Source of the DNA: Candidatus Pacearchaeota archaeon
Lineage (GTDB): Archaea; Nanobdellota; Nanobdellia; Pacearchaeales; GW2011-AR1
Direction: 5' to 3'
DNA: 60,409 nt
Assembly (NCBI GenBank): GCA_018304025.1
Contig: JAGVXA010000002.1
Span: forward strand, 1 to 60,409
Position numbers and translations under genes: made by a program. Shown here piece after piece: positions 3,987 through 39,900 of this stretch (positions are counted from its first letter, which is position 1; each line of letters begins with the position of its first letter). The notes beneath the pieces were generated by a model. It had not been told where the DNA came from. It was given only the letters and a program-made list of their open reading frames with translations, and made no database searches.

Positions 3987-6900
3987 ATGAAAAAGATGCG
4001 GGTGAATCAGAAGAGATTTTTTATTATCTTGATATTTACTGCTGCAATAATTGCGGCAATTTTATTATTAATTTATTCTAAACAAAATGTTCCGTTTTCT
4101 CCTGCTGATTCTTACAGAGTTTTTGCAACAAACCAAACATTCGACGGAAAATTGGGGGGAGTTGAAGGGGCGGATGCAAAATGTCAAGAATCTGCGAATA
4201 CTGCCGGGCTTATTGGAAGTTGGAAAGCGTATATTGGAAAAACAGGAGCTGTTCCAGAATCAAGAATTTTTCAATCTTCTTTGCCTTACAAAAGATTAGA
4301 CGGAGCGTTAATAGCCAATAATTGGAATGATTTAACAGATGGAGGCATAGCAGTACAGATTGATATCGATGAATATGGACAGAAGGTAACTGCAGAACAA
4401 TATTCAACATTTCTTTTTGCTTGGACAGGAGATACTGACTCGGATGGAAAAATAAGCGCCTGCAGGGATTGGACAGCAAATAATCTTGTGTATTCCAATG
4501 GAAAATGGATTTTGCCGGCGCTGTGGAAAGAGTATGGGGGTGCGGGAATAATAAATTGGAAAGACACTAATCGAAATAATGCCCAATGGTATCATGGAGC
4601 TAGTTCTGGATGCCATGTTAAAAATAGATTGTATTGTGTTGAGCAGCCCATGTGCGGAGATGGGATGTGCGATGTTGGGGCTGGAGAGGATTGTTCAAGT
4701 TGTGAGAGTGATTGCGGGGCTTGTGCGCCTGTTTGTGGAGACGAAATATGCAGTGGAAATTTAGATGAAGATTGCGACGGTTTAATTGATTGTGCAGATA
4801 CTGATTGTTCAGAAGAATCTATTTGTATTGCTCCTTCTTTTCCAGAAGATTATGTTTCTTATTGGAGATTTCAAACTGAGACAGATGGAATAACTCCTGA
4901 TGAAACGGGAGCAAATCCTGGGACTTTTCATGGAAACGCAGCAATAATTTATGATGCAGAAAAAGGAAAGGTCCTTAGTTTAGATGGAGATGATGATTAT
5001 GTTGATTTCGGAGATCCTAATATTGGAACAGGAGGAACTGAACTTTCAGTTTGTGCATGGATAAAAGTTCCCACAAATGAAATATCAAGTATACAAACTA
5101 TAATAGGACAATCTGGCGATGGCAATGATCCTTTTTCTTTTTTTATAGACGCTAACGAAGATATTGCATTTAATGTTAATAATAATGCTCATTTAGATTT
5201 TGTTGGGAAATTTCAGGATGGCATATTAAATAAAGCAAGTATTTGGCGTTTTGTTTGCGGGGTTCTTGATGGAACGAACGTAATGGTTTATTTAAATGCT
5301 AGGAAGAGTGCAACTGTTGTGCCTTGGGGAGGGGGAGTAATTGATGATAGCAGTCAACCATATGTTCACTTAGCTATTGGATCTGTTACTGATGATGCAA
5401 ATCCTCCTTCAACTGAGTTCAGCGGAGCAATTGACGACGTAATTATTTATAACAGAGCTTTGAGCGTAGAAGAAATTCAAGCAATCTACAACACTCAAAA
5501 TCCAGGAATTCTTCTAGATTGTTCAGAGCAAGAGGGAGTTATTTGTTCAGTGCTAGAATCCTGTCCTGGAAACCATTTACTTGCTTCTGATACGACTGAA
5601 TGCTGCGATAGTGCTTGTGTCGAGATTCCAGATACATGCAATGAGTGCGGGGTTGACCCGCTTAATCCGTGTGATATAGAAGAATGCCAGTCAATAGCAG
5701 GATGCCACTATACCTTGTTTAATGGATGCAAATCATGCAAAGGCACAACTTGTATAGCCTCCTATGGCATTGATGAAGCAGCATGCGATGCAAATGTTTG
5801 TGGTATTGCGGGGGGATGCAGTTGGCAGATTGACTCAGGCAGCTGCATCATGGGCTCTCCTGAACCTGAATGTTTTACTGACGACGACTGCAATTCTGGT
5901 AGTTGGTGCGGCGGCGGAAAATGTTTGACAGACTATTGTGAATCTGAACATGGCTGTGTTTATTATGTTGATAATGACGGGGGAGACGGATTGCAGAGCG
6001 GATGCAGCGATAGCAATGATGGACGGACATTAAACACGCCATTTTGCACAATTCAAAAAGCCGCTGATATGACGGGGCCCGGAGATACTGTAATGGTAAG
6101 AGGCGGGACTTATATAGTCGAATGTCCTAAAAAGTTATGTGAGATCCTTCACATCATTAGACCTGGAACTTCAGAGAAGCCAATAACTTACACAAATTAT
6201 AATTATCCAAATGAGAAAGTAATTTTGCAAGGACATGGGTTTGAGGATAGAGACTTGAATGGAGACGGTAAAGCTGACGGTATAGCTCTTACATTGCCTG
6301 ATCAAGAGAAACTGATTTGGATACAGGCAAATCATATTCATATAAAGGGATTTGAACTAAAAGAATCCAGCGCGGGAGGAATAGTAATTTCCGGCAGTTT
6401 TAATCTTATTGAAGAATGCATTGTTCATGACAATTGGCTAACTGCGGTGGGAATTGGATATTCTACTTCGGAGACGACAATTGTTGAAAGTAACATAGTA
6501 AGGAATACAGAAACTTATGGAAATCGCCACGGTTATGGAATCACTATAGGAAGAAACTCTCCGGGCAGCAAGGATTCTTATTTGAACTACGTAAGAAATA
6601 ATAAAATAGAAAACTGTCTAAGTTATAATAATGGTTATGAATCGGGGGGATTTAATAATGTTTTGCCTATAGGAGGAGATGGGGACGGAGGAGGAAATAG
6701 CGACGGCATGGGAGCATCTAAGCTGTGCAGTTATTATCATACTCTTAATGGCGTAACATGGGATGATTTTAATTGGTGTCCTAATAATTCAATAATAAGC
6801 AATATTATTTTTGGCAATGCAGATGATGGTATGGATGTCTCCTTTTCAGATTCCCTTTTAAGCCGAAACATAATGTTTAGCAACGGACCTGACGGAGGAG

Positions 6901-13069: not shown

Positions 13070-13137
13070 TTTATCGATAGAAATGGGAGGTTTTTAAAGG
13101 TTATAGATTTTTGGGGTTTAGCGCAAGAACAAGCAAT

Positions 13138-13392
13138 TTACTTTTTGATGTGCTGTTTGAAATCATTAGCTAAACTTTTGAACTGATTAGATAAATGATT
13201 ATGTGAAGAAATTAATCTTGCCAAAGACAGCCCGATGGTAAAAACGCAGCCGAGATTAAAAATTAAAAGCGAAATAATAATGTCTTCTGTAGTCCATGAA
13301 CCGCCGAGTATTCTTTTTATTATTTGGTAGACGATGAAAAATCCGAAGAGAATTAATATTGTTATTAGGATATTTTCAACTGTCTTTTTCAT
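13138..13392 (-). CDS. Small two-TM membrane protein
   Basis: 84 aa, two hydrophobic segments and a coiled-coil tail. Confidence 0.65.
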   Translation of the reverse strand: MKKTVENILITILILFGFFIVYQIIKRILGGSWTTEDIIISLLIFNLGCVFTIGLSLARLISSHNHLSNQFKSLANDFKQHIKK

Positions 13393-14927: not shown

Positions 14928-15117
14928 TTTGTTGAAAATTTTTTGTTTGGAGTTATCTTGCCCCCACCCACTCGCGATCACGTTCGTCATTTGCTTTTTT
15001 TTACTCGAACGTGATGCGCTCGCCCCGCCCTGCTTGTCCAAATATTCTTCGTTGTCGCTCAGAATATTTGGCAATTTAGTGCAAGATAACTTATTCGTTT
15101 TTAACTTTTTCAACAAA
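14928..15117. other. Structured intergenic element (long closing stem plus two hairpins)
   Basis: Paired arms tttgttgaaaa/ttttcaacaaa, agttatcttgc/gcaagataact, atcacgttcg/cgaacgtgat, ccaaatattct/agaatatttgg. Confidence 0.7.
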
Positions 15118-15235
15118 AATTCTTAGTTGTCTCTTTGAAAGAGAGGCGGGCTTTTGCTACTTTTTTGGATGACAGGAGTGGAGAAAGATTTAAAAGTCAT
15201 GCATGAAGTGTAATATATAGGTTGGAAAATATAAC

Positions 15236-15520
15236 ATGATAGGAGAAAAAACAAAAGAAAATTTTGACATCTTTTTCAGAAGAAAGCCGGCGCTGATGCT
15301 GGTTGCTTTGAAGAAGATTGCACGCGCCCGTTATGGCTCGATTTTAGCAAAGGAAGTTGACTGCACTTATTCTCATGCTGTTAAGATTTTGCAGAGCTTG
15401 GAAAGACTGGGGCTGGTTGTTTTTGAGAAGAAAGGGAGAATTAAGCTGATTAAATTGACTAAGAAAGGACAGGAAATTGCAGAGAATATTGAGAATATTA
15501 AGAAGTTGATTGCTAGTTAA
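15236..15520 (+). CDS. Winged-helix (MarR-like) DNA-binding protein
   Basis: LAKEVDCTYSHAVKILQSLERLGLV..GRIKLIKLTKKG. Confidence 0.85.
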   Translation: MIGEKTKENFDIFFRRKPALMLVALKKIARARYGSILAKEVDCTYSHAVKILQSLERLGLVVFEKKGRIKLIKLTKKGQEIAENIENIKKLIAS

Positions 15521-15560
15521 TTCTTTTTTTGAATAATTTTTCGTATATAAAATATATTTG

Positions 15561-15645
15561 TTTTCTGGCCGAATTGGACGCCAATTGCGGAGGCTGGCGT
15601 CTTATTTGTTTGAAAATTCACTTCGTGAATTTTCCGCGCGCCGAA
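15561..15645. repeat. Single REP-like element
   Basis: aattg + gacgcca..tggcgtc + ttat + gaaaattcac-ttc-gtgaattttc + cgcgccgaa. Confidence 0.8.
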
Positions 15646-15693
15646 TTAACTTGTTAAAAAATCTCATTGACTCACTCTTGTTGCGACGAGCAA

Positions 15694-15764
15694 TGATCCC
15701 GCTAATCGAATTCTTTCTGAATTCTCAAACAAACGCTGCAATAACATCGTTCGAGGGATTTGAA
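15694..15764 (-). repeat. Duplicated 3' end of tRNA-Ile interrupted by a 51-nt insert
   Basis: Minus strand TTCAAATCCC (15764-15755) + 51 nt (15754-15704) + AGCGGGATCA (15703-15694), matching the tRNA 3' 20 nt. Confidence 0.85.
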
Positions 15765-15797
15765 GCTCACTGCGGTGCTCCTCGCTACGGCAGGCGA

Positions 15798-15892
15798 TGA
15801 TCCCGCTGGGATTTGAACCCAGGACCTCTGCCTTTCTGATAATTTTTATGTAATATCAGAGCAGCGCTCTAACCAGGCTGAGCTACGGAATC
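15798..15892 (-). tRNA. tRNA-Ile(GAT) with a 20-nt canonical 37/38 intron (15834-15853)
   Basis: Acceptor GATTCCG/CGGGATC-A; anticodon arm CTGCT-CTGATA^A-GGCAG; T-arm CTGGG-TTCAAAT-CCCAG; BHB helix CTGA/TCAG. Confidence 0.93.
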
Positions 15893-15894
15893 TT

Positions 15895-15967
15895 GAGACT
15901 CTAAGCGAAGCGTGGTTTTGAGTCCTTTCTTTCTTGGACGATTAACCAGGCTGAGCTACGGAATCTT
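15895..15967 (-). repeat. Upstream duplicate of the tRNA-Ile 5' end plus fold-back insert
   Basis: 15943-15967 identical to 15870-15894 (25 nt); spacer ATCGTCCAAGAAAGAAAGGACTCAAAACCACGCTTCGCTTAGAGTCTC. Confidence 0.88.
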
Positions 15968-15987
15968 AGAGTTCTAACAAAATCTGC

Positions 15988-15997
15988 TTTTATAAAA
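15988..15997 (-). promoter_or_regulatory. TATA box for the tRNA-Ile locus
   Basis: TTTTATAAAA ending 23 nt before G1 of the upstream duplicate fragment. Confidence 0.55.
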
Positions 15998-16040
15998 TTA
16001 TCCCAAACAATTATTAATCTTAAAATTTAACAAATAACGG

Positions 16041-16112
16041 GCGTCGTTAGTCTAGTGGTTAAGATACGAGCTTCCCAAGCTTGTGACGCGAGTTCAATTC
16101 TCGCACGGCGCA
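16041..16112 (+). tRNA. tRNA-Gly(CCC)
   Basis: GCGTCGT/ACGGCGC-A acceptor; CGAGC-TTCCCAA-GCTTG; GCGAG-TTCAATT-CTCGC. Confidence 0.95.
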
Positions 16113-16177
16113 TTTTCTTTCACCGCAGAAAATTTTCATACAGAAAAACTTTATAACCCTTTTCGCTTAATAATGTC

Positions 16178-16624
16178 ATGGAAAAAAGAGCTCTAAGTCA
16201 AGTCATCGCAACTCTCCTTCTGGTATCTGTGTCTCTTACCCTCGCTGTGATAATTATCGCTTGGGCAAGAAGTGATATTTTTTCATTAAGTCCGCAAATC
16301 GACGCGGAATGCAGCGAAATTTATTTTGAATCGGAAATCCTTAAAATAGACGGAACAGATTATCTTTTTGCCGTTAACCTCGGCAACGTCAATATAATCG
16401 GCTTCCAAATCAATGTGATAGAAACAGATATGATTGAAAATAAAGAGAGTGTAGAAACAGAACTTCCTCCCGGAAAATCTCGCGAAATAAAGCTAAATTC
16501 AGTTTATTTAGAAGACAAGGAATTTTTGGTAGTGCCAATTATCGCAGCAAAAAAAATTGACAAAGAAATTCCTCTGACTTGTCCTGAAACTTACGGCCAA
16601 ACAATTGAGACGCCACATTCCTAA
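16178..16624 (+). CDS. Archaeal type IV pilin-like protein
   Basis: Class III signal MEKRA|LSQVIATLLLV, NLGN motif, Cys pair. Confidence 0.8.
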   Translation: MEKRALSQVIATLLLVSVSLTLAVIIIAWARSDIFSLSPQIDAECSEIYFESEILKIDGTDYLFAVNLGNVNIIGFQINVIETDMIENKESVETELPPGKSREIKLNSVYLEDKEFLVVPIIAAKKIDKEIPLTCPETYGQTIETPHS

Positions 16625-16655
16625 TCTTTAAAAATGCATTTTTCCTAAAACTAAG

Positions 16656-17222
16656 ATGGACTCGCTAAAAAAATTTTGGAAATTTTTGAATGAAGACAGC
16701 TGGCAATCCTGGCTGGTTTCTTTGGTGTTAATAGTCGTAATAATAAAATTTATCTTTTTTCCGGCGCTTTCTTTCATAACGCAAACGCCGCTGCCTCTTG
16801 TCGTCGTGGAATCCTGCTCAATGTACCACGAATCAAATTTTGAAGATTGGTGGGAAAAAAATTCCGGCTGGTACGAATCTAAAGAAATTGCTTACGAAGA
16901 ATTTAAAGAATTTCCTTTTAGGTCTGGGCTGAACAAGGGAGATATAATTTTTGTCTGGGGCAGAAGCGAATATAATTTAGGAGATATAATAATTTTTGAT
17001 GCAGGGGGAGAATATGCCAAGCCGATAATTCACAGATTAATAAGCACGAATCCTTATTCAACAAAAGGAGACCACAATCCTTCTCAGGCGTCTTTTGAGA
17101 CAAATATTCCTGATGAGAATTTACTTGGAAAGTCTTTATTTAAAATTCCTTTGGCTGGATGGGTAAAACTAATTTTCTTTGAACCGTTTCAGCCGCCGCA
17201 AAATAGAGGTCTTTGCAATTAG
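16656..17222 (+). CDS. Signal peptidase I (Sec11/S26B type)
   Basis: VVESCSMYH, KGDIIF, IIHR, TKGDHN. Confidence 0.9.
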   Translation: MDSLKKFWKFLNEDSWQSWLVSLVLIVVIIKFIFFPALSFITQTPLPLVVVESCSMYHESNFEDWWEKNSGWYESKEIAYEEFKEFPFRSGLNKGDIIFVWGRSEYNLGDIIIFDAGGEYAKPIIHRLISTNPYSTKGDHNPSQASFETNIPDENLLGKSLFKIPLAGWVKLIFFEPFQPPQNRGLCN

Positions 17223-17370
17223 TCGCTAATTCATATCGCTCGATATTTTTCGAAAGAGGACGCCAGCAATTTTCTGCGCAATGAGCAATTGCCTTAACAA
17301 ACAGTTACTATTAAAAAGTGTTACAAGAATATAAATAATCTTGTTTCCATTAAGCCCTAAATAATTTAAA

Positions 17371-17679
17371 ATGGAATTTTGTGAGCGATGCGGTGGAATG
17401 ATTCTGGTAAAAAATGATAAGGCGACTTGTGTTAGTTGCGGTCATAAACAAAAAAAGAAACCGCATATTAAAGCGGCGGAAAAAATAACGCAGCAGGAAA
17501 CAGTGGCTGTTATTAAAGAAGAGCAAGGCAATACAAACCCGATAGTTGAAATGAAATGCCCTAAATGCGGGCACAAAAAAGCATATTTCTGGACGATGCA
17601 AACTCGGTCGAGCGACGAGTCGGAAACTAAGTTCTATAAGTGCACGGCGTGCAAGCATACTTGGAGAAAATACAGGTAA
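17371..17679 (+). CDS. tfs: Transcription factor S (TFS/RpoM)
   Basis: MEFCERCG, CPKCGH, QTRSSDESETKFYKC. Confidence 0.95.
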   Translation: MEFCERCGGMILVKNDKATCVSCGHKQKKKPHIKAAEKITQQETVAVIKEEQGNTNPIVEMKCPKCGHKKAYFWTMQTRSSDESETKFYKCTACKHTWRKYR

Positions 17680-17957
17680 TGAAAAGAAAGACTAAAGTTA
17701 AAGCGAAGAGATTTCTTATCAACTGGAAAGGAAAATTAATTATATTAATTTATTCTGTCTTATTTTTTGCAGGCATAATTAATTATATTCTTCTTAATCA
17801 GCCTTATTTTCCAGCAGATACACTAATAGGACTTTTGTTATTGGTTCTTCTTTTTGCTTCATTAATTTTTTGCATAATCGCGATAATCTGGCTTTGTTTA
17901 AGAAAGGGTTCTGAAAGAGCCCCAAGGTATTTTTCAGGGACAAGTGTTCCATCATAA
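17679..17957 (+). CDS. Small two-TM membrane protein
   Basis: ATG overlaps the tfs stop (TAATG); two hydrophobic segments. Confidence 0.6.
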   Translation: MKRKTKVKAKRFLINWKGKLIILIYSVLFFAGIINYILLNQPYFPADTLIGLLLLVLLFASLIFCIIAIIWLCLRKGSERAPRYFSGTSVPS

Positions 17958-17973
17958 TTTTGATTTACCAATC

Positions 17974-17981
17974 TTTAAAAA
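17974..17981 (+). promoter_or_regulatory. TATA box for the tRNA-Lys locus
   Basis: TTTAAAAA ~29 nt before G1 of the upstream duplicate fragment (18010). Confidence 0.55.
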
Positions 17982-18007
17982 CCATTTCAATCTTCTTTAC
18001 TTGTCGA

Positions 18008-18083
18008 ATGGCCTCGTAGCTCAGTCTGGTAATCGTCCAGGAAGGAAAGGACTCAAACCAGTCTTCGCTATTGTGCCGTCAAC
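18008..18083 (+). repeat. Upstream duplicate of the tRNA-Lys 5' end plus fold-back insert
   Basis: 18008-18031 identical to 18084-18107 (24 nt); spacer ATCGTCCAGGAAGGAAAGGACTCAAACCAGTCTTCGCTATTGTGCCGTCAAC is homologous to the Ile spacer. Confidence 0.88.
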
Positions 18084-18085
18084 AT

Positions 18086-18159
18086 GGCCTCGTAGCTCAG
18101 TCTGGTAGAGCACTGGACTCTTAATCCAGGTGTCGTGGGTTCAAATCCCATCGGGGTCA
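18086..18159 (+). tRNA. tRNA-Lys(CTT)
   Basis: GGCCTCG/CGGGGTC-A; CTGGA-CTCTTAA-TCCAG; GTGGG-TTCAAAT-CCCAT. Confidence 0.95.
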
Positions 18160-18204
18160 TATGATATTGAGTGAAACGAAATATTATTAATCCAAAAATG
18201 ATTT

Positions 18205-18330
18205 GTTCAAATCCCTCACTCGACCACACTTGGGCGAGTGAATGAGAATTCTGAAGGAATTCACTTATCGGGGTCACTGAACCAATGTCGCCCAAGCGTG
18301 GTCAGTCTGGTGGTCGACATATGGGTCACT
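18205..18330 (+). repeat. Duplicated 3' end of tRNA-Lys interrupted by a 51-nt insert, followed by a further hairpin ending in a third gggtca
   Basis: GTTCAAATCCC 18205-18215 + 51 nt (18216-18266) + ATCGGGGTCA 18267-18276; gggtcact again at 18323-18330. Confidence 0.85.
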
Positions 18331-18390
18331 CACTTAAAGAACATTCTGACAAAGAGAAAAGTTTAAAATGCCTTTGCAAGTAAAATTTAT

Positions 18391-18765
18391 ATGGGAGAAC
18401 CACCAAAAATAGATTGGCTCTTGGTTTTAACGAGAGTATTCATTTTTATAATAATAGCTCCACTTATTTATTTGTCTTTCGATACAATATTAGGTAAATT
18501 TTTTCTTATGCTATATATAATTTCTCTGATTTTCTTTGTTATCTTTTTAGTTTCTTCGAGATATCGAGATTGGGGGGAGAGGAATAAAAGTTCTAACTAC
18601 TTTGTTGTATACTTTGTAATAATCTCGGTAATTGCAGGAGTTATTTCATATTCCGGAAAAAATTTTAATTTTTTTAGTGTATTAGAATTTATTTTTTTTG
18701 TTCTTGTTTTTATTTTACTCCACTTTCTTTTCATTTTATTATTAAAAAACCAAATAAAAAATTAA
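18391..18765 (+). CDS. Four-TM membrane protein
   Basis: Hydrophobic 124-aa ORF with BRE/TATA upstream. Confidence 0.7.
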   Translation: MGEPPKIDWLLVLTRVFIFIIIAPLIYLSFDTILGKFFLMLYIISLIFFVIFLVSSRYRDWGERNKSSNYFVVYFVIISVIAGVISYSGKNFNFFSVLEFIFFVLVFILLHFLFILLLKNQIKN

Positions 18766-18823
18766 ATGTTCCGAAAAGATAATGGTGGCTTTTTATTACT
18801 TATCTGAGGGGTACTTTGTTGTA

Positions 18824-19504
18824 TTAGAATCCCTGCTGGAAACCAGAATTGAATTCGACGAATAATTTATTGTCTAAGACAGAATACTTTGTGATTGGGA
18901 GATTTACGGGGATTGAATTTACGTAAACTTTCTTGCTGCCAAGGGCTTTGACTTCGTAGCCTGATTCCAGCTTTGAAATAAATATATCGTCGACGGATTG
19001 GACGCCGGGGGTGTTGAGTTCATAAACAACTTTGTCGCCTAATCTTTTTACATTTGTTCTTGCCTCTGCTTTAGGCAAGGAAGATATTTTTTCTATTTGT
19101 TCTGGTGTTATTGGTTTTCTTGGCTGGACTTTCTTTTTTTGTTTTGCCTGAATTATTCTAGGGCCTGCAATTTTTATCCTGATTCCATTTGGAAATGTTT
19201 TTATTTCCGCATCTTGAAATTCTTTTTCCATTTCTTTGAATTGGTTTTGGAATTGCTTGTCGAGGTTTTTTATCAAGCTATTGAAGACAGAGCTGATTAA
19301 TCTGTCTGTTATGCCGAAACCCTGCGCTGGGGGTTCTTGAAAATTTGAATTGATTGAATCATTTCTTCCTAAGAGTCCAAAGTCTGCTTCTTCTTTTCTT
19401 GGGTCTAGGAAAGAGCTTCCGCAAGAGGGACAGAAATTAGAATTGGGATTAGATTTGTGACCGCAATTTTCGCATTTCTTTTTGTCTTTTTTATTGAAGA
19501 ACAT
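18824..19504 (-). CDS. Zinc-ribbon protein with possible HSP20-like C-terminal domain
   Basis: CENCG..FCPSCG; C-terminal VVYELNTPGV..DI..EVKA pattern similar to alpha-crystallin domains. Confidence 0.7.
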   Translation of the reverse strand: MFFNKKDKKKCENCGHKSNPNSNFCPSCGSSFLDPRKEEADFGLLGRNDSINSNFQEPPAQGFGITDRLISSVFNSLIKNLDKQFQNQFKEMEKEFQDAEIKTFPNGIRIKIAGPRIIQAKQKKKVQPRKPITPEQIEKISSLPKAEARTNVKRLGDKVVYELNTPGVQSVDDIFISKLESGYEVKALGSKKVYVNSIPVNLPITKYSVLDNKLFVEFNSGFQQGF

Positions 19505-36900: not shown

Positions 36901-39900
36901 TTATCCACGCAGAATATGTAAATTGCGGAGAACTAGTCAGGCTTTGTTTAGGATTCCCAATTCGAATAACATTATTCATTCCTAAAAATTCAAAACCACC
37001 TCCGAATTTTCCTTCTTTTACAGGTCCGATTTTAGAAGAATCTACGATAACAACTGTTCCGTTATTTTCATTTCCGCTCCAGTCATATACAAATGTGTCA
37101 TTTTCTTTGACAGAAGAATCGTTGTCGAGTCTCCACCAGCCGACTAATGACTTATCAAAATCATTCAAGACGTAATGCTCTCCGTTGTTGTCTGCTGAAG
37201 AAACATTTATGATAATGGAGTTTGTGTTTCGCGCTGAAGCGTTTGCAGGAGTATCTCCGACGAAAGAGATATTTGGAGCAGTTACATCGGGTGTTGTTAC
37301 TGTTCTTTGTTCTGTTGAATTTAGATTTCCTGCCAAATCAACAGCATAAGACTTGAATGTGTGCGCTCCCTCTGGCAAGTTTGTGAAGGTATTGTAATAC
37401 TGGTGTGCCGAAGCGCTATATAATGTTGCAATCTCATCTGCTGATAATATTCTGTTGAAAATTAGGACTTCGTCAATTGAGCCATTGAAGTAATATCTAC
37501 TTCCGTCGTCTTCGCTTCCTATTGAATTGCTTGTTGATGTTGTTGCAGGTGTTCTTTGCTGACCGAACTCTACAATGCTACTTCCGATTATTTGACCGTC
37601 TAAGTATATGCTTATGTTTCCTGTAGCATAATTTATTGTTCCGACGATGTGTTGCCATTTGTTTTCAACTGCGCCGTTTGTTTGAAAGCTAAGCAGGCCG
37701 CCACCATCTATTGCTCGTGCGGCAACTTTTATATCATCTGTATTTCCTACTTCTATTGATGCTCTTGTGGATTTTGTCGGTAAAACAGAATTAATCGAAA
37801 TTGCTACAATGACATTACCCTCTGTTGAATGGATTTTTTTAGGATATACCCATGCAGATAATGTTGCACTACTGACATTAGATAGTATGTCGAGTCCTGT
37901 TCCAAGCCCGACATAGTCTCCATTTCCGTAGAATTCAAATGCTTTGCCGAACTTTCCGTTAGGAGTTTGCGCAGAGTTGCCCATTGCTGTTCCATTGTTG
38001 CTCTTGTTGCTTAGGTCTATTATTTTGGTTCCATCAATGTCATCCATTCTCCACCAGCCGACTAATGATTTATCAAAATCATTCAAGACATAATGCTCTC
38101 CGTTGTCGTCGGCTGAAGAAACATTTACGACGAAAGAATTTGTTGATAATAAGGAGTTGTTTGCAGGAGTATCTCCGACGAAAGAGATATTTGGAGCTAT
38201 AGGGTCTTCTCCGATGCTATAATTGCTCCAGCTCGTTACATTGAATATAACTGTATCTGCGTTTAATGGCGTGAAAGCGTAACAGTCTGTGCAGGGCATT
38301 CCATCTCTTAATATTGTCGGTCCTTTGAAATTTGCTCCGGGAGAATTGTAGAGAGTTATGTTTGCTGTTCTGTTTAAGCCAGGCGTAATTAAAGATTCAA
38401 CTGTGACTGAATTATTTTCGATTCTTATATCGTTGCTTAAATTTGAATTACTGCCTGTTACGTCCTGATAAAAATAAACTTCTCCATATTCAGATTTCTT
38501 GACACTTATAGTGCCTGTTAAATAATATCCTGCTATTGAACTGTCTATTACATTCGTTCCATTTACATAACTCCAAATACCGCCAGGGCTAATTCCAGTG
38601 ACATTTTTTAGAGTGATGTTGTTTGAATATATGTAAATACGATTATTTGTTATAGTATTTTCTATTAAATTATTTGGAGAACCAGAAAGCCAAAATGCTC
38701 CGTACGCATCATTCATAATAATATTGCCGGAAAAATTATTATTTTGCGAGTTGTCTGTCCAGATTGCTTTGTGTACGTTGCTGTACATGCGATTGTTTTT
38801 TACAACAGTATAATCTACACCGTTAAAATACATGCCAGTGTACTGCCTGCTAATTGAATTATTAAATATAAAAGAATAGTCAGCTCCTTGGAGATAAATT
38901 CCTCTGCCGCTGGATGCGATGCCCATAGTAATGTTGCAATTCTTTACTGTAGTATTCGGCTGGTTTGAATAAACTCCTGCAACCGGGTTCGTGCTTTTGA
39001 TTGAATATCCTTTGCAATCCAATGTAATATTTTGCGCGGAAATAGTAATACAAGGAGCGGTTAAACCGTTGTTTATAATATTCGCATTCATCTCGTATGT
39101 GGTGTTTGATTCAGAGAGCGTGTCGCATTCGAATACAGATGATTTGTTTATTGTGACAAATCTCTGCTCTGTTGAATTTAGATTTCCTGCTGTGTCAACG
39201 GCGTATGCTTTGAATGTATGGTTTCTTCCTTGTAAACTTGTAAATTCATTGTAATACTTATTTGTAGACGCTTCATACAACGCCGAGATTTCACTGACAG
39301 ATAATGTTCTATTAAATAACGAAACATCGTCAATTATGCCGTTGAAGTATGCTGTGGACCAAGAGGAATCGTAAATGCCTGCTTCACCAATATAAAAGTT
39401 TCCTGTTTCTGTTGCTCCGCAAGAAGCAACCATATCAAATAGAGGTTCTGTTTTATCAAATACTCCATTTATATAAAGCGACATAGCTTCAGAACTAGGT
39501 ACGTAAACAAAAGTAATAAGTGTCCATTCGTTTAGAGGAATATTTTGGGTGCTTGTAATTCTGCTTGTGCCATCATACTGAGGTTCGCCGAGTCCGCTAA
39601 GAAAATTCAGTTTATTGTTGCCGTCTAAGTAAATTGAATGCATTCCGCAATCGTAGCTGTCTAATTCTGAATAATAATTAATTATTCCGCCCTCACTTTC
39701 AGGATAAATCCACATTGCCCATGTAAAAGCAGAAATACTAAACGGATAAGGCGCATTTTCTGTTGTTATATAATCTCCACTGCCATCAAAACTAAATCCT
39801 TTTCCGAACTTACCTTCGTTAGTCTGCGCAGCATCACCGCCTTTAGTTCCGTTATTGCTCCAGATACTTAGGTCAACAATGTCCCCAAAACTATTGAGGT

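Follow-up and report, generated by a model that had tools for sequence, protein, structure and literature searches.

Stranded fragments of tRNA genes, i.e., attL/attR duplications, are found at the integration sites of integrase-bearing elements, as set out in the available part of one published account (PMC9897764). In Thermoproteales, near-identical short sequences occur as transposed introns at the same position of unrelated tRNA genes (Fujishima et al. 2010, via PMC4090602), a pattern which, in the excerpts of the latter source, implies spread at the DNA level by an unknown mechanism (PMC4090602). Split and permuted tRNA genes have also been described in Archaea; their pieces, in the sections available of that work, have ends at mature tRNA ends (PMC3218864). 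It is an open question by what route introns are acquired at so many positions of archaeal tRNA genes, and the DNA module described below may bear on it.

Sublocations within tRNA genes were reportedly described by Williams in 2002. IS200/IS605-type elements and their miniature palindrome-bearing derivatives insert without target duplication beside a short adjoining target, carry a hairpin near each end and have one strand that folds. Integron attC sites, which are conserved in fold and not in sequence, are recognised as a folded single strand and are also inserted without target duplication. Both hairpin-recognising transposases and integron-type recombinases handle their substrates as single-stranded hairpins.

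The window, i.e., the whole stretch of DNA analysed, comprises positions 1 to 60,409 (60,409 nucleotides) of the forward strand of contig JAGVXA010000002.1 in assembly GCA_018304025.1 of a Candidatus Pacearchaeota archaeon, a tiny groundwater archaeon whose genome is 88% complete.

Two tRNA 3′-end copies are split at the same position

By reading the sequence directly, we confirmed what an earlier note on this DNA had claimed, i.e., that copies of the 3′ ends of two tRNAs are split at an identical position by 51 nt. In both copies the split lies between tRNA positions 63 and 64, and the copied part comprises positions 54-73; at the Lys locus, the left half (54-63) corresponds to the T-loop and the first three bases of the 3′ T-stem strand. 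The features of the two loci are as follows.

18009-18084, + strand: spare 5′ end of tRNA-Lys (positions 1-23 = 18009-18031) with a 53-nt fold-back spacer
18086-18159, + strand: intact tRNA-Lys(CUU), a functional gene (Rfam RF00005, 69.4 bits; ARAGORN)
18161-18205, + strand: AT-rich spacer from the tRNA to the spare 3′ end (read directly)
18206-18215, + strand: left half, exact copy of tRNA-Lys positions 54-63
18216-18266, + strand: 51-nt two-hairpin module (model R1, 82.7 bits), consisting of hairpin 1 (18216-18241), a 4-nt linker, hairpin 2 (18246-18262) and a 4-nt tail
18267-18276, + strand: right half, exact copy of tRNA-Lys positions 64-73
18288-18303, + strand: inverted partial copy of hairpin 1, inside a feature at 18288-18328
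18323-18328, + strand: third, decayed partial copy of the tRNA end
15893-15965, − strand: spare 5′ end of tRNA-Ile (positions 1-23 = 15965-15943) with a 50-nt fold-back spacer
15798-15892, − strand: intact tRNA-Ile(GAU) with a 21-nt anticodon-loop intron (Rfam, 57.3 bits)
15765-15797, − strand: 33-nt spacer
15764-15755, − strand: left half, exact copy of tRNA-Ile positions 54-63
15754-15704, − strand: 51-nt two-hairpin module (model R1, 74.6 bits), consisting of hairpin 1 (15754-15725), hairpin 2 (15724-15708) and a 4-nt tail
15703-15694, − strand: right half, exact copy of tRNA-Ile positions 64-73

The modules were said to share their start, their second hairpin and a TT end, with differing first hairpins, and this was borne out; the second hairpin common to both is a six-base EcoRI-type palindrome around a five-base loop. 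The same holds for the claimed complementarity of 18222-18237 to 18288-18303 (15/16, counted by hand) and for the third copy of the tRNA end, and positions 18289-18316 proved identical to 17402-17429 of contig C10. The Lys spacer (18161-18205) matches nothing else in the source genome; 24 nt of the Ile spacer recur behind tRNA-Glu on contig C19 with 96% identity. On the 5′ side, the fold-back spacers of Ile (50 nt) and Lys (53 nt) are homologous, and the outer 5′ copy of tRNA-Lys is preceded by a promoter-like TATA box. As a fixed pattern, this 5′-spacer motif was found in the source genome only (1/61 genomes), related species having analogous yet different 5′ spacers. An Rfam scan of window positions 15000-19000 (E<=1) returned three tRNAs and one chance-level match, and the module matched no family. 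ARAGORN wrongly calls the tRNA-Ile(GAU) a tRNA-Ser.

Given the base composition of the window, ~1e-9 arrangements of left half, 40-60 nt and right half are expected by chance in the 260 nt downstream of either tRNA. None of the runs in which the stretch is listed, 15 in number, is recorded as RNA. As an artefact check, the stretch was compared with Logan contigs of four sequencing runs, each from a different sample and study. The Ile locus was spanned (15604/5-15826) by a 222/223-nt contig in three of the four runs and the Lys locus (18131-18500) by a 2046-nt contig in all four, with zero differences in each case, and no insert-free variant or empty site, i.e., the same spare end without the module, was listed for either window locus in the four runs. 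The assembly artefact that the earlier note had allowed for was thus not seen in contigs from other runs; an artefact of this genome bin is excluded, but the four runs may sample one population and do not count as independent organisms. A conventional archaeal bulge-helix-bulge tRNA intron was also rejected, as the only working tRNA copy is uninterrupted at each locus, with complete tRNAs 45 and 33 nt upstream.

The module recurs at position 63/64 of several tRNA kinds

With a covariance model, R1, 24 matches at E<=0.001 were obtained in six of the 21 genomes of the genus and none in the other 15, and the earlier note's proviso that no further tRNA loci might carry the insert therefore did not come true. 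Family-wide, R1 matches at E<=0.01 were present in 15 of 121 genomes. Judged by their flanks, 16 of the 24 genus matches split a spare tRNA 3′ end, five split a spare 5′ end in the opposite direction, and three lie elsewhere. The split 3′ ends belong to nine tRNA kinds, i.e., Ile, Lys, Gly, Phe, Thr, Leu, Ala, Asp and Met; 15 of the 16 were measured, the Met copy with its offset junction being left out, and 13 of these 15 have their junction exactly at 63/64 of the cognate tRNA. This recurrence, in several tRNA kinds and six genomes, supports the site-specific mechanism that had been claimed. The split copies are 45-55 nt long, agree in their first two bases (15/15) and last three (13/15), and share the last five bases of the left flank in 11 of 15 cases, with other words in this place in 5′-end and non-tRNA contexts. 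Their junctions are unambiguous against the cognate tRNA, no target duplication is present there, and the two ends of the module belong to different hairpins. A classical MITE was rejected on these grounds, i.e., for want of terminal inverted repeats and target duplication. An intact cognate tRNA was found upstream of all 15 measured copies, within ~300 nt in 13 and at 1.1 kb and 8.3 kb in one each.

The module is not restricted to spare ends. In two other genera, complete tRNA genes carry it within an intron of the anticodon loop, and further copies separate the genes for aIF5A and L40e, separate those for L2 and S19, or follow 23S rRNA; the tRNA introns of the source genome yielded zero R1 matches at E<=5. 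Same-tRNA copies in different species are often not mutual closest relatives: Ile copies from four genomes show 58-69% similarity to one another, yet an Ile copy and a Thr copy from two different genomes are 86% identical, and Ile and Lys copies of a single genome reach 84% similarity. In some cases the nearest relative does sit at the same tRNA across species (Phe, 84%; Gly, 78%), so that vertical descent alone accounts for part of the pattern.

Flank conservation was dropped as a sign of function, as the flanks, still intact in the window, show decay in two to three sister genomes; in two genomes the left half of the Ile copy has two changes, and one copy is without its right half. The idea that only spare ends without the 5′ T-stem strand are targets was also set aside as not general, since the Ile copy of genome G006 keeps that strand.

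Set against the Thermoproteales introns as excerpted in PMC4090602, the module is likewise a short near-identical insert at one position of unrelated tRNAs, and it too occurs in tRNA introns (two genera); however, its copies at 63/64 lie in dead spare ends rather than working genes, its junctions have no predicted bulge-helix-bulge motif, and it is also found outside tRNA genes in either direction. As in the split and permuted tRNA genes covered by the available sections of PMC3218864, pieces of tRNA genes here end at mature tRNA ends, but each piece is adjoined by an intact gene for the same tRNA, so that joining is not needed to make that tRNA. No published description of the module was found in the literature searched.

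Conserved fold and strand bias

The Lys module has a predicted fold of -18.8 kcal/mol (z -4.5; 0/200 shuffles as good) and the Ile module one of -12.8 kcal/mol (z -2.0; 9/200 shuffles as good), and all 15 split copies are predicted to adopt the same order of hairpin, short linker, hairpin and tail. Across six aligned copies, 90% of cells pair, compared with 72% in shuffles and 30-46% in slid controls, and 0/500 shuffles reached the observed value. Ten of the 17 pairs in this alignment differ on both sides, i.e., they show compensatory change. Of the two strands, the module's own was the more stable in 15/15 split copies (28 vs 4 G.U pairs) and, outside these, in 13/14 contexts, among them those lying antisense to a host gene (16 vs 1 G.U pairs). 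The bias is inflated for the other contexts and for nine of the 15 split copies, because it was a model derived from the folding strand that set their orientation. In every one of the 15 split copies, the folding strand is the tRNA-sense strand. Minimum-energy folds of the split ends and of a hypothetical precursor contained no bulge-helix-bulge or relaxed motif at the junctions, and the 5′ junction sits inside a continuous helix in these folds.

With IS200/IS605-type elements the module has in common the lack of target duplication, a hairpin near each end, one folding strand and, it seems, a place beside a short target, and Y1 transposase genes are carried by 14 of the 21 genus genomes. Unlike in those elements, however, hairpin 1 begins at the very first base of the insert. 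A link was rejected, as Y1 transposase shows no correlation with the module across the genus (4/6 genomes with it, 10/15 without it) and was not found in the source genome (88% complete), in which there was only a sub-threshold TnpB-type match (21.1 bits). Five transposase loci in four sister genomes had no module-like ends either, the best match (14.7 bits) being a tRNA T-loop. Integron attC sites resemble the module in their conserved fold, in insertion without target duplication and, on the reading favoured below, in being recognised as a folded single strand, but the module carries no cassette. Searches of the source genome and the genus tied no transposase or recombinase to it. The source genome does encode a splicing endonuclease (PF01974, 94.1 bits; a 175-aa frame on contig C7), RNase P RNA and two tyrosine recombinases.

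Spare tRNA ends are common in the source genome

A spare end was found at 24 of the 42 tRNAs of the source genome, as a 3′ copy at 17 and a 5′ copy at 15, whereas the controls gave 0-2 of 42 (wrong side or wrong strand) and 1.6-3.5% (non-cognate pairs). The module is present at only two of the 42 tRNAs, i.e., in two of the 17 spare 3′ ends, the other 15 being without it, and many unsplit spare ends begin at tRNA positions 60-65. How spare tRNA ends arise is shown by an 11.6-kb integrase-bearing element at tRNA-Asp on contig C12, which is flanked on both sides by a 12-nt repeat whose first base is tRNA position 63. Sister genome G010 has a split Asp end at a distance of 8.3 kb downstream of tRNA-Asp, in the company of two other stranded Asp ends; this stretch was not shown to be an integrase element, the first frame behind tRNA-Asp having no Pfam match.

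At the window loci, the two halves together repeat tRNA positions 54-73 exactly, as in att-type features, and there is no integrase between the repeats, only 33 and 45 nt without a gene separating tRNA and spare end. In line with the duplications described in the available part of PMC9897764, a direct repeat of the 3′ part of the tRNA follows the intact tRNA. The window loci differ from that description in the short, gene-free distance between tRNA and spare end (33 and 45 nt) and in that a structured insert interrupts the spare end, and the source genome differs from it in that spare 5′ ends are as common as spare 3′ ones. The suggestion of att-like scars in the earlier note was partly borne out: the split pieces resemble att-type stranded ends, given how common spare ends are and the element at tRNA-Asp, but the insert itself is not the scar of an integrase element, since it also occupies tRNA introns, spare 5′ ends (there in the opposite direction), spaces between protein genes and a site following 23S rRNA. 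No larger element with the module at its end came to light. The minimal tRNA-targeting element of which the note spoke is supported, in that the insert behaves as a minimal element aimed at tRNA sequence.

Discussion

We favour, with modest confidence, the reading that the module is a miniature non-autonomous element, recognised as a hairpin, which has landed in stranded att-like tRNA ends. On this view, a small non-coding module of 45-55 nt with two hairpins would move within this archaeal lineage, and the two 51-nt inserts would be copies of it. Integrating DNA would rebuild the end of a tRNA gene and leave the redundant 3′ end stranded beside it, which would make the spare ends att-type duplications; the module would subsequently enter such an end at a fixed place, 63/64, without target duplication. 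As its own strand folds and its complement does not, the module may well be recognised and moved as a single-stranded hairpin substrate. Landing at 63/64 in a working tRNA would probably be lethal, because no splicing motif forms there, and this would explain why landings are seen only in spare ends.

Other histories could produce the same anatomy. The module may once have stood at 63/64 in working tRNAs as a non-canonical intron, until DNA recombining at the T-loop supplied an intron-free 3′ end and stranded the old one downstream. A crossover of this kind would leave a left half starting at the first T-loop base or one before, as is read from the flanks of ~10 of the 15 copies, and its exact product is the order of tRNA, spacer, 54-63, module and 64-73; the module's presence within introns in the anticodon loop of complete tRNA genes from two other genera is also in keeping with it. 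We nevertheless find such healing quite unlikely, as none of the 15 measured split copies is the sole copy of its tRNA end, independent healing would be needed at nine or more tRNA kinds, module-free spare ends are far commoner (15/17 in the source genome), and the junctions form no bulge-helix-bulge motif, the 5′ one being buried in a continuous helix of the minimum-energy fold. The patchy occurrence of the module, unmatched in 15 of 21 genus genomes and at only two of 42 tRNAs in the source genome, also makes it unlikely that split end and hairpins together are a pre-tRNA 3′ trailer for processing, stability or termination, conserved as a working RNA. Such a trailer would fit the tRNA-sense orientation of the folding strand in all 15 split copies, the compensatory changes that keep the fold, the presence of RNase P RNA and splicing endonuclease, and the promoter-like boxes upstream of outer 5′ copies and T-runs after some outer 3′ copies, on the strength of which the outer copies are probably transcribed with the tRNA. 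It would not fit a strand bias that is equally present where the module is antisense to a host gene, different module variants at the same tRNA locus in different species, or the decay of tRNA-derived flanks in some species.

It is improbable that the module is the remnant of a nested integration, in which an element with an att core from position 63/64 entered a spare end and was then deleted except for the arm next to the core. The deletion would have to end at the identical base in 13 of 15 copies, the module is found at many places with no adjoining tRNA end, and the search for a larger element ending in it found none; these points stand against the start of the tRNA-Asp integrase repeat at position 63, the many unsplit spare ends that begin at 60-65, and the split Asp end of the sister genome, 8.3 kb from tRNA-Asp among two other stranded ends. 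A decoy would be kept to lure nucleases directed at tRNA or elements that integrate into tRNA genes; in the window neither half has diverged from the tRNA, and the tRNA genes of this lineage are evidently often targeted, but flanks decay in sister species and a bait interrupted by ~50 nt at its core would escape recognition as duplex DNA, and we consider a decoy role very improbable.

A wider form of the miniature-element reading, which is possible but which we hold only tentatively, is that in DPANN-like archaea the module represents a tiny mobile element of a new kind, which is transferred as a folded single strand, homes to exposed tRNA T-arm and D-loop sequence and becomes a tRNA intron where a splicing motif can form. 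For annotation, partial tRNA copies abound in these genomes, and tRNA finders can miscall them. A fixed landing site, a conserved fold, a strand bias and enough copies for both trees and biochemical assays are at hand for testing. If the reading is true, the mobile module would be the missing vehicle for the transposition of archaeal tRNA introns, and the split spare ends would be a graveyard of unspliceable landings. A module of 50 nt that can be traced from dead spare ends to working tRNA introns would make the question of intron gain testable.

The two split tRNA ends of the window

The genome (992 kb in 29 contigs, 38% G+C, the window being contig C6) has an RNase P RNA of archaeal type and encodes the tRNA splicing endonuclease, so the organism is archaeal; its small size and its habitat (groundwater and soil metagenomes) suggest the DPANN type. 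Two tRNA genes of the window are followed by split copies of their own 3' ends:

18086-18159, + strand, tRNA-Lys(CUU)
15798-15892, - strand, tRNA-Ile(GAU), with a 21-nt anticodon-loop intron

Read directly, the order 3' of each gene is a spacer (45 nt for Lys, 33 nt for Ile), an exact copy of tRNA positions 54-63, a 51-nt insert and an exact copy of positions 64-73, with about 1e-9 such split arrangements expected per locus by chance. Each insert, or module (Lys, 18216-18266, + strand; Ile, 15754-15704, - strand), folds into two hairpins and a 4-nt tail. As the earlier note had described, the two inserts share their first two bases and their second hairpin and differ in the first, 18222-18237 is complementary at 15 of 16 positions to 18288-18303, and the Lys locus contains a third partial tRNA end.

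An identical 28-nt stretch occurs at window 18289-18316 and at 17402-17429 of contig C10; it contains the apical portion of hairpin 1 in inverted form and could represent a solo hairpin element. ARAGORN labels both the window tRNA-Ile(GAU) and the intron-bearing tRNA-Ile(UAU) at C19 19464-19588 as Ser; Rfam and the anticodon loops identify them as Ile.

The split ends are not an assembly artefact, a possibility that the earlier note had raised, as both insert loci recur in contigs from separate runs. At least half of the sampled words of the stretch were present in 15 DNA runs from eight studies, i.e., groundwater and soil metagenomes. When contigs of four runs (four samples and four studies, possibly one population) were compared with the stretch, 18131-18500 was found without any difference in all four and 15604/5-15826 in three, and no insert-free form was seen among their listed contigs.

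The module is a structured family

In G007, a sister genome of the same genus in which the flanks of 30 tRNA loci were read, the same split ends lie 3' of Ile(GAU), Lys(UUU), Phe and Gly(GCC), with the junction once more at 63/64. Six copies were aligned on the two-hairpin structure. Pairing was observed in 90% of the pairing cells, compared with 72% in shuffles and 30-46% with the partners slid; both sides had changed in 10 of the 17 pairs, and none of 500 shuffles reached the observed values. A covariance model (R1) yielded 24 matches (E<=0.001) in 6 of 21 genus genomes; of 121 genomes sampled from the family, 15 had matches at E<=0.01. In the present genome only the two window copies scored highly; weaker relatives lie 3' of tRNA-Thr(GGU) and tRNA-Leu(UAG) and in two to three intergenic places.

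Contexts of the 24 genus matches were assigned by eye from the flanks. Sixteen split a spare tRNA 3' end, i.e., a redundant partial copy beside the intact gene, and the insert is thus not confined to the two loci known to the earlier note. Five others (three Leu, one Ser and one unassigned) run the opposite way and split a spare 5' end within the D-loop. One match has protein genes nearby, another is found about 60 nt 3' of 23S rRNA (G007 contig C16, about 38780-38829), and a third was rejected, being a tRNA's own T-arm and trailer.

Fifteen of the 16 split 3' ends were measured, the omitted one being a Met copy in which the two halves share a two-base overlap. Their modules are 45-55 nt long, with the first two bases identical in all 15 and the last three in 13. 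The junction falls exactly at 63/64 in 13; in the exceptions, one right half begins one base late and one is decayed. An intact cognate tRNA lies upstream within about 300 nt in 13 cases; in the remaining two the distance is 1.1 kb and 8.3 kb. In two other genera the module sits within the anticodon-loop intron of a complete tRNA gene, once sense and once antisense, and in the family sample antisense copies occupy the gaps aIF5A-L40e and L2-S19 (gene names assigned from translations).

Spare tRNA ends and integration

Exact 5'-end copies of at least 10 nt were found within 150 nt upstream of 15 of the 42 tRNAs, and 3'-end copies within 260 nt downstream of 17, one of which (Val, on C3) is probably the T-loop of a neighbouring tRNA. 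Spare ends of either sort accompany 24 of the 42 and both sorts eight. In the controls, 0-2 of 42 had such a copy when the wrong side or strand was scanned, and non-cognate pairs gave 1.6-3.5%. Many spare ends form tandem arrays of copy plus spacer.

Stranded tRNA fragments left by integration are well known, as passages of PMC9897764 describe. How such ends arise is shown by an 11.6-kb integrated element (C12 9470-21193), which has a gene for a 401-aa Phage_integrase protein directly behind tRNA-Asp; a 12-nt direct repeat, beginning at position 63 of the tRNA, marks both ends of the element. In the sister genome G010, three stranded Asp ends, one of them module-split, lie 8.3 kb downstream of tRNA-Asp, at which locus no integrase was confirmed.

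Spare 5' ends (positions 1-23) with a homologous spacer of about 50 nt occur at window 18009-18084 (+) and 15893-15965 (-) and at C11 65747-65822 (-). Read in reverse complement, the 3' part of the spacer imperfectly matches the spare 5' copy, and the outer copy is preceded by promoter-like boxes. Spare 5' copies co-vary with their own tRNA, matching three differences between two Lys tRNAs. At the G007 tRNA-Arg(UCG) locus, the outer spare 3' ends represent another allele than the adjoining intact gene, which would fit replacement of the entire gene. At C21 25896-26091, 51 nt of the 73-nt tRNA-Gly(GCC) intron are repeated directly behind the tRNA 3' end.

A conserved imperfect hairpin element has about 25 good copies genome-wide, nearly all of them at most 100 nt behind a tRNA gene, in either orientation and often between a tRNA and its spare 3' end, e.g.:

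C19 19589-19647
C10 about 600-680
C7 8380-8438

A dispersed repeat with a GC-rich clamp and a hairpin has at least 15 genome copies, including:

window 15560-15650, - strand
C7 about 13075-13145
C1 about 18520-18640
C7 about 4810-4925

In the copies on C1 and C7 there is an additional insert of about 55 nt; over 22 nt, its second hairpin matches hairpin 2 of the Lys module at 95% identity.

Origin of the split ends

Stranded att-type tRNA ends would have been present first, and a tiny structured element would then have inserted into the spare end at one fixed place without target duplication. Module-free spare ends are common and the module also occurs away from any spare end, so the two processes can be separated, and the simplest sequence is that the module inserted into a spare end already in place. 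The geometry would also fit the reverse order, in which a working tRNA was hit and a surrogate end later healed it, but no unhealed gene was found and folding predicted no splicing motif. No support emerged for a link to IS200/IS605 transposases.

The tRNA-sense strand was more stable than its complement in all 15 split copies, by 0.6 to 11.5 kcal/mol, with 28 G.U pairs versus 4. The copy's own strand was also the more stable in 13 of 14 copies from other contexts (G.U pairs 16 versus 1), a count to be read with the fact that their orientation was assigned by a model built on the folding strand; copies antisense to the host gene are included. As the bias holds in split copies and other contexts alike, these predicted folds indicate that the folding species is a single strand of fixed polarity belonging to the element, not simply a host transcript. 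A functional trailer RNA is hard to square with this persistence in antisense contexts, with the absence of the module from 15 of the 21 genus genomes, and with the turnover of variants at one locus.

Similar introns have spread among tRNAs in Thermoproteales by an unknown mechanism, according to parts of PMC4090602. Among the papers listed by full-text searches, none describes in its title or abstract opening a two-hairpin element that splits spare tRNA ends.

Across species, some module copies at one tRNA are most closely related to each other (Phe 84%, Gly 78%). The four to five Ile copies are just 57-71% alike. One genome's Ile copy is 86% identical to another's Thr copy, the G007 Ile and Lys copies are 84% alike, and the window copies have the second hairpin in common. 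Judged from sequence comparison, this vertical descent together with cross-locus similarity is the pattern that would be expected from a mobile or converting element.
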